The notes: generated from the letters alone by a model not told the origin. Shown: positions 4,057 to 26,352, counted from the stretch's first letter. The stretch: 26,352 bases of DNA from a virus (IMGVR_UViG_2778261247_000004); one strand, 5' to 3'. Numbers and translations are program-made.

Positions 4057-4392
4057 ATGATTAATGCCGTTGAGTACAGATTACCGTTAGGAAATATCTC
4101 TCCAGAGAATCTTGACGCGTTGTCAGAACTTATCGTTAAGCATTCCGATAAATTTAATAACTATGTACTTAGTTCTATTTCTGATGATGATATTCGATAT
4201 TCTTACGATTACTACAATTTTGAAATCACAGAGATAGATGAATATGGGTTTCACTTTATAGCACCATATAGCTATTATGAAGGATGCGTTGACAATAACT
4301 TCTCAGGAGAGGTTGAAGGTTATGCAGAATACGAAATTATTGATAATGAATTAGTCTTCTCTCTTGAGGAACTACCTTGGGATGTAAAATAA
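4057..4392 (+). CDS. Hypothetical highly acidic, Tyr-rich small protein (cargo gene in the Q-holin slot)
   Basis: 111 aa ORF with strong RBS AAGGAGG 5 nt upstream of the ATG. Visibly AT-rich relative to flanking phage genes. About 24 Asp/Glu against 5 Lys/Arg, counted by eye. No family recognised. Confidence 0.6.
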   Translation: MINAVEYRLPLGNISPENLDALSELIVKHSDKFNNYVLSSISDDDIRYSYDYYNFEITEIDEYGFHFIAPYSYYEGCVDNNFSGEVEGYAEYEIIDNELVFSLEELPWDVK

Positions 4393-4849: not shown

Positions 4850-5312
4850 TCCTCAGCGTAAAGCTTTCCTCGATATGGTGGCCTGGTCAGAAGGAACGGA
4901 TAATGGGCTACAACCGACACGTAATCATGGTTATGACGTCATTGTGGGCGGAGAAATATTCACTGATTACTCCGATCACCCTCGCAGACTTGTCACGCTA
5001 AACCCAAAACTCAAATCAACGGCTGCCGGGCGCTACCAGCTTCTTTCCCGCTGGTGGGATGCATACCGTAAACAGCTTGGACTGAAAGACTTCTCTCCAA
5101 AAAGCCAGGATGCTGTTGCACTGCAGCAGATTAAAGAGCGTGGTGCTTTACCGATGATTGATCGCGGTGATATTCGTCAGGCTATCGACCGTTGCAGCAA
5201 TATCTGGGCTTCACTGCCGGGAGCTGGTTATGGTCAGTTTGAGCATAAGGCTGACAGCCTGATTGCAAAATTCAAAGAAGCCGGCGGAACGGTCAAAGAG
5301 ATTCAGGTATGA
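4836..5312 (+). CDS. R: Endolysin, lambda R-type lytic transglycosylase
   Basis: 158 aa, near-identical over most of its length to phage lambda R as I recall it ([17 protein letters not shown]...[123 protein letters not shown]). Confidence 0.95.
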
Positions 5313-5746
5313 GCAGAGTAACGGTGATTATATCCGCTCTGGTTATCTGCATCATCGTCTGCTTGTCATGGGCTGTTGATAATTACCGTGATGACGCCAT
5401 CGTCTACAAAGTACAGCGCGATAAAGCCACATCCATCATCGCTGATATGCAGAAGCGTCAACGTAATGTAGCTGAACTCGATGCCAGATATACAAAGGAG
5501 CTTGCTGATGCTAATGCGACTATCGAAAGTCTTCGTGCTGATGTTTCTGCTGGGCATAAGCGCCTGCAAGTCGCCGCCACCTGTACAAAGTCAACGACCG
5601 GAGCCAGCGGCATGGGCGATGGAGAAAGCCCTAGACTTACAGCAGATGCTGAACTCCATTATTACCGTCTCCGAAGTGGAATCGACAAGATAACCTCACA
5701 GGTCAATTACTTGCAGGAGTATATCAGGACGCAATGTCCCAACTAA
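5309..5746 (+). CDS. Rz: Spanin inner-membrane subunit (i-spanin), lambda Rz-like
   Basis: 145 aa. N-terminal TM segment [22 protein letters not shown] plus coiled-coil periplasmic domain, closely resembling lambda Rz. Start overlaps the R stop (ATGA). Confidence 0.9.
5508..5693 (+). CDS. Rz1: Spanin outer-membrane lipoprotein subunit (o-spanin), Rz1-like, embedded in the +1 frame of Rz
   Basis: +1 frame ORF wholly inside Rz. Signal peptide with lipobox ([20 protein letters not shown]) then a Pro-rich mature region ([13 protein letters not shown]). RBS AAAGGAG about 8 nt upstream of ATG 5508. Confidence 0.75.
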
Positions 5747-5843
5747 TCACATTTTGAGGATATTTAACGTCTATGCTTTAATGATTTTATTCATTGTTTT
5801 ATAATCGCGAAGAATAATGATGAACTTGGCAAAGGATATGATT

Positions 5844-6068
5844 ATGCGTATTAAACCTCAAGATTTTAAGTTTGATGTGTTGACTGTTGCTGGTTACGCT
5901 AACCCTAAAGCTAAAACACATTTCGCACCTTCTGCTTCTGGATTTAATTTTAAATGGGAGTGGGAAGGGAAAATTTATGAGCTTCATATCGAGCAAGAAA
6001 AATTACAGTACCCTGATTTTATTCTTGAACGACTTTTTGATGCCGCAATTGAGATGGCTAAAAAATGA
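5844..6068 (+). CDS. Hypothetical small protein (AT-rich island, unknown function)
   Basis: ORF 5817-6068; preferred start ATG 5844 (RBS AAGGA about 8 nt upstream), giving about 74 aa. AT-rich; a TATAAT-like hexamer at about 5800-5805. No family recognised. Confidence 0.45.
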   Translation: MRIKPQDFKFDVLTVAGYANPKAKTHFAPSASGFNFKWEWEGKIYELHIEQEKLQYPDFILERLFDAAIEMAKK

Positions 6069-6174
6069 CAAAAATCACCGGATGGGGTTTTTGTTTATAG
6101 ATATTCACACATAGCCCTTGCATCTAGAACAGAAAATCTTGTCATGGCGCGGGGCTATGTTAGCAAAAATTTAT

Positions 6175-6615
6175 TTAATAGGATATTTTGTTTGCAGATT
6201 TAAGCTCTTTAAGAGTAGCGTCAAGTATATGTAAAAATAGAGAAGTGTCGCCATACTCATAATGTGGCTCGGATTTGTATTCTCTAATATAAATAAATCC
6301 ACCTTTGGATAAAAATAAATCAATCAGCTCGTTGTTATTTTCATCGGTTGGGTCAATGGCAGCAAACTTCAATACAGGAGCTTCATCAATGACTAGCAGT
6401 GTTTCTTTGAAAATAAGTTCTAGTTCATATGTTGAAAGTTTGAGGGTTAACCTATTTTTTTTATCTTTATTGAAAATTATTGTGTCGCCAAGAAAATCGT
6501 ATTCAGAGCTTGAGTCAATAATGTTATTCTTAAGTTTGAGAGATATTGCATCTAAAGCCTTTTTATGCTCTGCGCACTTAACAACTTTATGAACATCTAA
6601 ACTGGGGATACTCAT
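6175..6615 (-). CDS. Hypothetical protein, minus strand (AT-rich island, unknown function; candidate accessory gene)
   Basis: 147 aa from ATG at 6615 with RBS AGGTGG 8 nt upstream on the minus strand (track ORF reaches 6678). Strongly AT-rich. Opposite in orientation to every flanking phage gene. No TM segment and no motif I recognise. Confidence 0.5.
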   Translation of the reverse strand: MSIPSLDVHKVVKCAEHKKALDAISLKLKNNIIDSSSEYDFLGDTIIFNKDKKNRLTLKLSTYELELIFKETLLVIDEAPVLKFAAIDPTDENNNELIDLFLSKGGFIYIREYKSEPHYEYGDTSLFLHILDATLKELKSANKISY

Positions 6616-6717
6616 AATACAACCACCTATGTAAGAACTAAAGAGCATTGAGTCTATGTGATTAATATCAAGACCCAATTAAATTTTTTAAATTATTAGA
6701 GTTAGATCCCACTTTAA

Positions 6718-7068
6718 ATGCCCCCACGAACCCCAAAAGCCTGCCGCGTTCGCGGCTGCCGCCAAACCACCACTGATCCGTCAGGCTATTGTGAAAGCCA
6801 CAAAAGCGAAGGCTGGAAACAATACAAGCCAGGACAATCCCGTCACCAGCGCGGCTACGGTTCGAAGTGGGATGTTATCCGCGCGCGCGTGCTGAAGCGT
6901 GACAAAGGCCTGTGTCAGTTGTGCCTGCATGTCGGTGTGGTGCGTGAGGCGAAAACCGTTGACCACATCATCCCTAAAGCGCATGGCGGCACTGATGCAG
7001 ACTGCAATCTGCAGAGCCTGTGCTGGCCGTGTCATAAGGCGAAGACGGCCCGTGAACGACTGAAGTGA
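6718..7068 (+). CDS. Phage HNH endonuclease (terminase-associated type)
   Basis: 116 aa with CxxxGC...YC..H N-terminal zinc knuckle and HNH core (VDHIIPKAHGGTD...NLQSLCWPCHKAKT). Immediately upstream of the small terminase, as in HK97-like phages. Confidence 0.85.
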   Translation: MPPRTPKACRVRGCRQTTTDPSGYCESHKSEGWKQYKPGQSRHQRGYGSKWDVIRARVLKRDKGLCQLCLHVGVVREAKTVDHIIPKAHGGTDADCNLQSLCWPCHKAKTARERLK

Positions 7069-7688: not shown

Positions 7689-9418
7689 GCCGGAAATCTT
7701 ACCCCAACGTAAATGCTGCCAATCAGTATGCCCGGGATGTCGTGCGCGGAAAGATTGTGGCCTGCCAGTTTGTGATTCAGGCCTGCCAGCGCCATCTTGA
7801 TGACCTGATGGCGGAAAAAAGTAAGTCGTTTCGTTACCGCTTCGACAAGGACCTGGCTGAACGGGCCGCCAAATTTATTCAGCTGTTGCCGCACACCAAG
7901 GGTGAGTGGGCATTTAAGAGGATGCCCATCACGCTGGAGCCGTGGCAGCTCTTTGTGATCTGCTGCGCGTTTGGCTGGGTCAATAAAGGCTCCCGGCTGC
8001 GCCGCTTCCGGGAGGTGTATACCGAAATCCCCCGTAAGAACGGCAAATCGGCAATCTCTGCCGGTGTTGCCCTGTATTGTTTTGCCTGTGATAACGAGTT
8101 TGGCGCGGAAGTGTATTCCGGTGCCACGACAGAGAAACAGGCGTGGGAAGTCTTTCGCCCGGCTCGACTGATGTGTAAACGCACACCCATGCTGACGGAA
8201 GCGTTCGGGATTGAGGTTAACGCCTCAAACATGAACCGTCCGGAGGATGGCGCGCGGTTTGAACCGCTGATCGGTAACCCCGGTGATGGTTCATCACCCC
8301 ACTGTGCGGTGGTGGATGAATATCACGAGCACGCCACCGATGCGCTTTACACCACGATGCTTACCGGGATGGGGGCGCGACGTCAGCCACTGATGTGGGC
8401 TATCACCACCGCCGGGTACAACATTGAGGGGCCGTGCTACGACAAGCGGCGGGAAGTCATCGAGATGCTCAATGGCTCGGTGCCTAACGATGAACTGTTC
8501 GGGATCATCTATACCGTTGATGAAGGTGACGACTGGACCGACCCGCAGGTGCTGGAAAAAGCCAATCCAAATATTGGCGTGTCGGTTTATCGCGAATTTT
8601 TGTTAAGTCAGCAGCAGCGTGCGAAAAATAACGCCCGTCTGGCAAACGTCTTTAAAACAAAACACCTCAATATCTGGGTGTCGGCGCGTTCGGCGTATTT
8701 CAACCTGGTGAGCTGGCAGAGCTGCGAGGATAAATCACTGACCCTTGAGCAGTTCGAGGGGCAGCCGTGCATTCTGGCCTTTGACCTGGCGCGTAAGCTG
8801 GATATGAACAGCATGGCGCGACTTTATACCCGCGAGATTGACGGTAAAACGCATTACTACAGTGTGGCCCCGCGTTTCTGGGTACCGTATGACACGGTGT
8901 ACAGCGTCGAGAAAAATGAAGATCGACGGACAGCCGAACGCTTTCAGAAATGGGTGGAAATGGGCGTTCTGACCGTTACCGATGGTGCGGAGGTGGATTA
9001 TCGCTACATCCTCGAGGAGGCCAAAGCGGCGAACAAAATCAGCCCGGTCAGTGAGTCACCCATCGACCCCTTCGGGGCGACCGGGTTGTCACATGACCTT
9101 GCTGATGAAGACCTGAACCCCATCACTATCATTCAGAACTACACCAACATGTCCGACCCGATGAAAGAGCTGGAAGCGGCAATTGAATCGGGGCGCTTTC
9201 ATCATGATGGCAATCCCATCATGACCTGGTGTATCGGCAACGTGGTCGGCAAAACCATTCCGGGTAACGATGATGTGGTGAAACCCGTCAAAGAGCAGGC
9301 GGAAAACAAAATCGATGGTGCAGTTGCGCTGATTATGGCGGTTGGCAGAGCCATGTTGTACGAGAAAGAAGACACGCTGTCTGACCACATTGAGTCCTAC
9401 GGGATCCGCTCGCTTTAA
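7685..9418 (+). CDS. Terminase large subunit
   Basis: 577 aa; size, position and ATPase/nuclease-like organisation consistent with HK97-type TerL. Start overlaps the TerS stop. Confidence 0.9.
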
Positions 9419-25807: not shown

Positions 25808-26352
25808 TTACCGTCCAATGATTAACGCTGAGACGCTGGTATCTGAAGGAAAGGCTGCATTCAGTGGTTTGTCGACTTTGAACACAATCGTATTATTCCC
25901 CCTGACAGCGGCAAAAGAACAAACCGCCGTCGCGTATGAACCTGTAATATTACTGGATACACCACCATAAGCTGTTGTTGATACCAGAGGGATAACGCCC
26001 AGCACCTTATTAGGAAATACAAAGGGCAATGTGGCTGTGGCAATATAAGACTTATTAGAACCTGTGATGGCATAAGCATTATCAGTCATTCCATTCATCG
26101 CCACTGGGCCGCTTATACTTACAGTAACCATCTGAATGATTAGCCCGTCAGGTTGACGAATCACAAAATTTCCATTGCTACCAGTAACCGTCCAGAAAGA
26201 CATATCAGGGATTTGGTTTTCCCCGTTGCCCACATTCCGTTTTGCCGCTTCTCCCAAACCAACGTTTATGAAAATGGTAACCGGCTCATTTAAACCGTCT
26301 GGTCTGTTTCCTCCGGCTCTACAAAAATAATGTCCATCATTTTTAATGGACA
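25808..26352 (-). CDS. Alternative tail fibre variable C-terminal segment (Sv'-like), minus strand; frame stays open to the window edge
   Basis: The track ORF starts at TTG 26257, but my translation of the same frame stays open through 26352 (...PDGLNEPVTIFINVGLGEAAKRN...). Shares an N.GLGE junction with the + strand fibre exactly at the inverted repeat. Stop is 2 nt before the tfa' start. Confidence 0.6.
   Translation of the reverse strand, partial: SIKNDGHYFCRAGGNRPDGLNEPVTIFINVGLGEAAKRNVGNGENQIPDMSFWTVTGSNGNFVIRQPDGLIIQMVTVSISGPVAMNGMTDNAYAITGSNKSYIATATLPFVFPNKVLGVIPLVSTTAYGGVSSNITGSYATAVCSFAAVRGNNTIVFKVDKPLNAAFPSDTSVSALIIGR
26246..26271. repeat. Right crossover site (inverted copy) for a serine invertase
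   Basis: TTCTCCCAAACCAACGTTTATGAAAA. The central dinucleotide AA is the reverse complement of the left site's TT, as required for inversion. Confidence 0.6.

Follow-up and report, generated by a model that had tools for sequence, protein, structure and literature searches.

What does a single small gene, set against the direction of the whole late operon, contribute to the prophage that carries it? The window (the whole stretch of viral DNA analysed, 26,352 nucleotides) is an e14/SfV-type prophage, its head HK97-like and its contractile tail Mu-like, and is identical to a prophage region of E. coli ATCC 11775 (NZ_CP033092.2). An earlier reading of the sequence alone (the original prediction) described here a minus-strand orphan gene with its own expression signals, probably active in the lysogen. 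The gene was followed up by annotation, comparison with related prophages, homology searches and structure prediction.

The antisense gene and its product

The gene and its ribosome binding site are as follows.

6175..6615, minus strand: coding sequence of the antisense gene (ORF and translation, RefSeq annotation WP_000026993.1, family alignment)
6623..6628, minus strand: Shine-Dalgarno sequence AGGTGG, 7 nt before the ATG (read from the sequence)

By ORF calling and translation, the minus-strand gene starts with the ATG at 6615 and stops with the TAA at 6177-6175, giving 146 amino acids plus a stop codon; the gene itself is thus as originally described, while the 147 amino acids first assigned to it include the stop codon. 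RefSeq annotates a CDS with identical bounds (WP_000026993.1, "hypothetical protein") and, in agreement with the original prediction, no other minus-strand gene in the window outside the invertible fibre segment. The reading frame is open upstream of ATG 6615 as far as a TTG at 6678, and the probability of a 167-codon open frame arising by chance at 32% GC is approximately 2e-6 per frame start. From the sequence, ATG 6615 is judged to be the true start because a Shine-Dalgarno sequence is in place, because the relatives keep a Shine-Dalgarno sequence and ATG at this point, and because in one relative (L002) an in-frame ATG further upstream runs into a stop. The Shine-Dalgarno sequence had been placed 8 nt from the ATG, near enough to the 7 nt found, and its equivalent (AGGAG or AAGGAG) is present in all relatives. 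The encoded protein has a mildly acidic pI of 5.4, a GRAVY of -0.2 and neither a signal peptide nor a transmembrane segment, and is predicted to be small, soluble and cytoplasmic.

Genomic setting

An AT-rich island between the lysis and packaging genes holds the antisense gene; the parts of this region are listed below.

5309-5746: Rz lysis gene (Pfam Phage_lysis)
5747..6717: variable cargo slot, AT-rich island (composition and comparison of related prophages)
5844..6068, plus strand: 74-aa ORF WP_001220676.1, convergent with the antisense gene (annotation)
6718-7068: HNH endonuclease gene, with the small and large terminase genes next (annotation)

The slot contains the sense 74-aa ORF, hairpins and the antisense gene. 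GC content is 0.30-0.36 over approximately 5750-6700 and 0.50-0.60 on either side; the CDS itself, at 0.32, is AT-rich as had been noted. In a related E. coli prophage (L027) the slot is empty, with the stop codon of Rz1/lysC 26 nt from the HNH ATG, compared to an interval of 971 nt in the window. A second related E. coli prophage (L028), with HNH/terminase flanks that are ~92% identical, carries in the slot an antisense iss gene (a bor homologue) between an Rz-type gene and the HNH gene, while the cargo of other relatives here comprises a DUF6236 protein, an S1 peptidase and a KilA-N protein. Homology to the prophages with an empty slot or other cargo restarts exactly at the HNH ATG (6718). 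Morons have been defined by differing GC content and by their own promoter and terminator (PMC3594210). The island is additional DNA that parts genes adjoining one another in other prophages, and its composition departs from that of its surroundings; the element is therefore probably a single-gene moron or accessory gene.

The 74-aa ORF was considered as a partner of the antisense gene and rejected, since its homologues (64-78% identity) occur after the spanin genes of Enterobacter asburiae and Pantoea latae prophages in which no member of the antisense family is present. It is also unrelated to the small ORFs beside other family members and, judged by sequence comparison, is a separate module.

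Three further observations were made on the layout of these prophages. A second AT-rich insert (4057-4392, plus strand, GC ~0.32) places a 111-aa ORF between the Q-type antiterminator and holin genes; this ORF matches PHROG 13663 and has homologues in the equivalent slot of L009 and L006/L007. The pin-type recombinase gene by the invertible fibre segment (approximately 26329-26352; 40630-40752 in L001) is annotated as an incomplete pseudogene, and the fibre switch of the window prophage may be locked for that reason. Finally, a 14-nt sequence, GTTCGAAGTGGCAT, in two relatives (L010, approximately 7885-7900; L002, approximately 6880-6895) resembles the reverse complement of the 5' end of the window HNH gene, ATGCCCCCACGAAC (6718-6731). 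The L010 and L002 cassettes bear GTTCGAAGTGGCAT although no HNH gene adjoins them, and the sequence may be the scar of a transfer from an HNH-adjacent site.

Expression signals

The following elements flank the coding sequence.

6616..6717, minus strand: 5' non-coding part of the cassette, presumed promoter/regulatory region (conserved blocks)
6690..6718, minus strand: weak candidate sigma-70 promoter, TTTAAA-17-TAATTT (PWM scan)
6109..6160, no strand assigned: inverted repeat, a long imperfect hairpin 15 nt past the stop codon (repeat finder)
6067..6095, no strand assigned: second hairpin, with U-runs after it on both strands (folding)

The 5' non-coding region stops exactly at the HNH start codon of the other strand, and blocks of it are common to the window, L002 and L010, the cassettes of which are 61-64% identical. 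Compared to a diverged allele (L022), it shows 0 substitutions in 102 nt. When both non-coding flanks (6040-6175 and 6616-6717) are taken together, this pair differs at 1 of 208 sites there, against 15 of 441 in the CDS (Fisher p = 0.028), which hints that something besides the protein could matter.

A consensus scan of the window for sigma-70-like promoters returned 4 matches against 3.9 expected, none suitably placed upstream of the ATG, so that no promoter stands above chance there. A PWM scan picked out the weak candidate listed above (score 6.6); at the equivalent position L010 and L021 have a stronger element, TTGAGA-16-TAAACT, which scores 11.0 in each. The end of the candidate -10 hexamer lies 72-74 nt before the ATG in all three, and the consensus scan picks up the L010 element while missing that of the window.

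Downstream of the gene, the inverted repeat has perfect 9-nt arms (6109-6117 and 6152-6160) that are 34 nt apart, and folding of 6060-6180 gave z-scores of -2.3 for the minus strand and -4.2 for the plus strand. This repeat had been put forward as a bidirectional terminator; the repeat is present, but its loop is long, the gene strand lacks a U-run after it, and it is not a canonical terminator. The hairpin at 6067-6095, between the convergent genes, is the more plausible candidate for a bidirectional terminator on sequence grounds. A terminator scan called neither of the two window hairpins. In the relatives, canonical intrinsic terminators occur right after the stop codons (in L005, AGCCTC-loop-GAGGCT followed by TTTTGATTTTC), and hairpins follow the stop codon in L003 and L010. 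A search of 5600-6900 against Rfam returned nothing. Of the expression signals originally credited to the gene, the Shine-Dalgarno sequence and the downstream hairpins were recovered, whereas a promoter was not, no match in the window rising above chance.

A family of antisense genes in enterobacterial prophages

The gene had been called an orphan. A search of clustered proteins (5.8 billion) recovered 4 clusters when the single sequence was the query and 16 when a profile was used, and six matches were obtained when 1.84 billion representatives were scanned exhaustively with HMMER. The members, of 143-146 aa and at 27-64% identity, were found in E. coli, Salmonella, Citrobacter koseri, Lelliottia and Atlantibacter hermannii. 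Thus the gene belongs to no named family, as predicted, but is not solitary, being one of a small family found only in the prophages of Enterobacteriaceae. Searches by tblastn of 50,697 sequenced phage genomes and of 72,556 plasmids gave no match, and no relative was found among the GTDB species representatives; in IMG/VR, eleven contigs carry the gene. A literature search for the accession WP_000026993.1 found no mention of it.

At all of the approximately 24 loci recovered, the gene occupies the interval that separates the lysis cassette from the packaging genes and runs counter to the late operon, so that the opposite orientation noted for the window gene is borne out in every relative. These loci span at least 8 combinations of lysis and packaging modules, including terminases of the lambda GpA type, of the P27 type with HNH, and of the Hendrixvirinae type. 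The neighbouring genes vary by clade (a 74-aa ORF, 76/78-aa ORFs, or genes of 485 and 198 aa). A conserved partner gene in the same orientation, as would be found in a toxin-antitoxin or other two-gene module, was looked for and none was seen; the neighbours are only convergent or divergent. The unit that is constant across clades is the antisense gene alone.

In one clade (L005 3887-5922; L006 5447-7924; L009 5102-7924; L023 3449-5924) a divergent gene encoding 485 aa lies 76 nt from the antisense gene. Its product has a glycosyltransferase-2 match with an E value of 7e-4, which is under the Pfam cutoff. A conserved 198-aa gene is always nearby downstream in this clade, overlapping the 485-aa gene in L005 and separated from it by other genes in L006 and L009. 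The GT2-like gene was rejected as a general companion since it is confined to one clade and the pair is missing from the window. In the Lelliottia prophage (L006, 6095-6430, plus strand) a gene for an IraP-like anti-adaptor (PF10796) was also found in the lysis-to-terminase slot beside the family member, antisense to the late operon.

The CDSs of the family have a GC content of 0.27-0.35. For pairs with unsaturated synonymous sites dN/dS was 0.17-0.44, and on this basis the protein is considered to be under purifying selection. The gene is intact and is not a decayed fragment of a known gene, one of the outcomes that would have undone the original prediction. Among close alleles 9 non-synonymous and 4 synonymous codon changes were counted, which points to fast or relaxed evolution.

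Length variation of a poly-A tract

One feature inside the coding sequence varies between carriers.

6455..6462, minus strand: poly-A tract A8, codons 51-54 (length compared between genomes)

The tract is A8 in the window, L013 and L014, A7 in UTI89, L015 and the diverged allele L022, and A5 (in frame) in L031; A7 is therefore seen on two different allele backgrounds. A 54-aa product (P0008) fits A9. From these variants the tract is read as a recurrent site of length change, a hotspot at which the frame is easily switched off. Another member (P0003) is frameshifted at a different site.

The window allele was found in 106 complete E. coli genomes out of 5,426; the carriers, BEN2908 among them, are for the most part B2 extraintestinal and avian pathogenic strains. 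The state of the gene was determined in 60 of the 106 carrier genomes, evenly spaced.

Intact gene, 441 nt: 33/60 genomes (55%)
One base short, 440 nt: 25/60 genomes (42%)
First 85 nt only: 2/60 genomes (3%)

Frameshifted carriers include UTI89, IHE3034, NU14, APEC O18 and PMV-1, and no CDS is annotated at 24 of the 25 short copies. The two genomes that keep only the first 85 nt, at 100% identity, are E. coli ZJ3920 and APEC E18006 (H130 and H131), and these remnants would imply a recombination or deletion breakpoint inside the CDS. The tract is a coding homopolymer with a length polymorphism that toggles the frame, one feature of a phase-variable (contingency) gene, the other being reversible high-frequency switching within a clone; homopolymer sequencing error is possible in some assemblies. 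The variation could be phase variation, or a plain decay hotspot, or in part homopolymer sequencing error. With ~42% of sampled carriers frameshifted, any claim of a strong benefit is weakened, and selection for retention appears weak in at least one lineage.

Predicted fold and homology searches

The original prediction of a soluble-looking protein with no assignable motif was upheld by the GRAVY value given above and by searches of Pfam, NCBIfam, PHROGs and PADLOC with the window protein and all 13 members, in which nothing rose above noise. In PADLOC-DB v2 the only hit was PDC-M24A (E 0.011-0.016, 13 bits), obtained for 3 of the 13 members, all from one clade, and at noise level. No match was found in the PDB by sequence profile.

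A model was built with AlphaFold from the 13-member alignment (pLDDT 86.5, pTM 0.79); with 5 sequences only, pLDDT was 45.6, and the 13-sequence model was the one used. In it a long N-terminal helix (residues 8-37) is followed by an antiparallel sheet of seven or eight strands, and residues 126-140 form a C-terminal helix. In the family alignment the invariant residues are nearly all core hydrophobics, helix 1 is lysine-rich, and the single cysteine (C14, in helix 1) is not invariant, being Leu in P0009 and Ser in P0014.

Foldseek returned no match in the PDB. The model resembles frataxin/CyaY and the RWD/UEV/E2-like sandwiches in topology alone. Frataxin/CyaY, marked by an acidic ridge on helix 1 and strand 1, was rejected because there is no sequence membership and helix 1 is lysine-rich rather than acidic. 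An E2/UBC-like enzyme, which would have an invariant catalytic cysteine in the loop after the beta-meander, was rejected because C14, the only widely shared cysteine, lies in helix 1 and is not invariant. The Gifsy defence protein GiPD474 was also rejected as a relative, as it is an unrelated ATPase. The class of fold in the model suggests a small protein-binding module.

The remote homology and structure searches originally proposed as a check have thus placed the protein in no known sequence family, and yielded one significant viral structural match, a protein of Burkholderia phage Mana (UniProt A0A873WDE3; Foldseek E 2e-5, TM 0.72/0.70 over ~150 residues). This entry was equated with CPT_Mana_015 by length alone, that gene being the only 151-aa CDS of phage Mana. 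The Mana gene is a small uncharacterised CDS of a P2-like temperate phage, situated between the tail-completion genes and gpV with its own annotated terminator, and it also looks like a moron. It differs from the antisense family in lying on the sense strand rather than against the late operon, in host and in phage type, and the two proteins have no sequence likeness (hhalign probability 0.2%).

Proposed role and alternatives

The full reading that we favour is a moron encoding a protein-binding factor which benefits the lysogen, with an anti-phage role as our guess; taken whole, it has about an even chance of being correct. The prophage would have gained horizontally a cassette made up of ~100 nt of conserved 5' non-coding DNA, the ribosome binding site, the 146-aa CDS and the downstream hairpins, set backwards in the slot between the lysis genes and the HNH/terminase genes. 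Facing Q-antiterminated late transcription, the gene would yield its product only from its own promoter. Because the antisense orientation is invariant, expression is probably uncoupled from Q-driven late transcription; orientation and precedent together suggest that it would occur mainly in the lysogen and not during lytic growth. Antisense placement relative to lytic genes is characteristic of prophage accessory loci, and one such gene is transcribed from its own promoter in lysogens (PMC7067206). The lysogen-expressed antisense gene STMMW_20121 of prophage ST64B was considered as an equivalent in the same slot and dropped, since the reference ST64B record shows only sense ORFs there and no homologue.

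The protein would act by stoichiometric binding of another protein, a mode that is likely because it has no catalytic motif and its conserved residues are nearly all core hydrophobics. Protection would come from superinfection exclusion or defence through sequestration of a phage or host factor. As a statement of role, protection of the lysogen against other phages by binding such a factor is tentative, and somewhat unlikely when taken by itself. A part in phage-phage or phage-host conflict does fit a protein that bears no mark of catalysis and has an interaction-type fold, and it fits a gene that evolves fast, is patchily distributed and has been lost repeatedly; a defence role would be plausible. 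It is weighed against by the other antisense cargo of this site, iss/bor and the IraP-like anti-adaptor, which act on the host, and the protein resembles no known defence or exclusion protein. The most specific version, in which the protein is a new single-protein anti-phage or exclusion factor expressed in the lysogen from the bor/iss slot, with a fold new to immunity and an ST95-type allele that is phase-variable through the poly-A tract, is rather improbable.

Modulation of the host ranks close behind the anti-phage role, because the known cargo of the slot (iss/bor and the IraP-like gene) acts on the host. According to this explanation, the gene is one of lysogenic conversion, the protein acting on host physiology or virulence, for instance by binding a host regulator, adaptor or stress protein in the manner of IraP-type anti-adaptors, to the benefit of ExPEC/APEC hosts. 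The serum-resistance lipoprotein gene iss/bor shares both slot and orientation in a related E. coli prophage, the anti-adaptor gene adjoins a family member in the Lelliottia slot, and the fold class comprises small protein-interaction modules. Most strains with the allele are B2 extraintestinal and avian pathogens (UTI89, IHE3034, NU14, APEC O18, BEN2908), yet this association may reflect clonal inheritance of one prophage, and the best-studied virulent carriers (UTI89, IHE3034 and NU14) hold a frameshifted copy. There is also no homology to known regulators or virulence factors, and on balance we consider this explanation unlikely.

The product could alternatively serve the phage's own cycle, as a counter-defence protein or a regulator of the timing of lysis or packaging, made early from its own promoter before late transcription overruns the gene; we regard this as quite improbable. 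A little less probable still is that the gene is a selfish or decaying passenger with no function, hitch-hiking with the prophage. The poly-A frameshift in ~42% of E. coli carriers, the 85-nt remnants, the frameshift elsewhere in P0003, the 9 to 4 excess of non-synonymous changes in close alleles and the want of an evident promoter in the window are what such a passenger would show, but five genera still have full-length members (143-146 aa) despite saturated synonymous sites, dN/dS is 0.17-0.44, the Shine-Dalgarno sequence and terminator are conserved in all clades, and the hydrophobic core has been kept along with enough co-variation in the family for a confident fold prediction.

It is very improbable that the antisense transcript or the act of transcription matters rather than the protein, with the cassette serving as a roadblock or insulator to keep leaky late transcription in the lysogen from reaching the packaging genes. 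The invariant orientation, the flanks, which have changed less than the CDS when the window is compared with L022, and the precedent of the exclusion-mediating prophage antisense RNA STnc6030 of BTP1 (PMC7067206) favour it, but the protein is conserved while synonymous sites are saturated, frame, length and Shine-Dalgarno sequence are kept in all clades, no late gene is overlapped by the transcript, as the hairpins come before the convergent 74-aa ORF, and Rfam gave nothing.

Should the protein prove to have a phenotype, the known prophage cargo genes would be joined by another small family, and there would be a clean case in which the junction between lysis and packaging genes in lambdoid and HK97-like prophages is a docking site used repeatedly by antisense genes expressed in the lysogen. 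Work on the family should be easy, since it concerns one small soluble protein, of which the E. coli type strain has the intact allele and UTI89 a naturally frameshifted one. For now this is one more uncharacterised accessory gene of a known sort, and no existing view is challenged by it.

Comparison with known phage systems

In the best-supported view, what is already familiar here is a moron in the bor/iss slot, and what is new is a very small uncharacterised protein family. In lambda-type phages bor/iss occupies the lysis/packaging slot in antisense orientation, and its product is an outer-membrane lipoprotein of ~97 aa which confers serum resistance. The slot (from Rz to the packaging genes), the antisense orientation and the single-gene cassette are all common to lambda bor/iss and the antisense gene. 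The proteins differ: there is no sequence relationship (no Pfam match at E <= 0.1), and the N-terminus of WP_000026993.1, MSIPSLDVHKVVKCAEHKK, has no hydrophobic signal segment and no lipobox, whereas Bor/Iss is a lipoprotein. Membership of the Bor/Iss family was rejected on these grounds. As regards expression, bor is expressed in lambda lysogens (PMC7067206).

The morons of the Hendrix type, such as HK97 gene 15, offer a second comparison. The product of HK97 gene 15 is a membrane protein, whereas that of the antisense gene is predicted to be soluble. HK97 gene 15 lies in the tail operon, the antisense gene in the lysis/packaging slot, and HK97 gp15 has been reported as a superinfection-exclusion protein (PMC3594210). 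Morons of this type have flanking expression signals, for which the window cassette has a Shine-Dalgarno sequence, hairpins and a weak candidate promoter. Insertion between genes that are adjacent in relatives, deviating composition and the coding of one small accessory protein are all features that the window cassette has in common with them.
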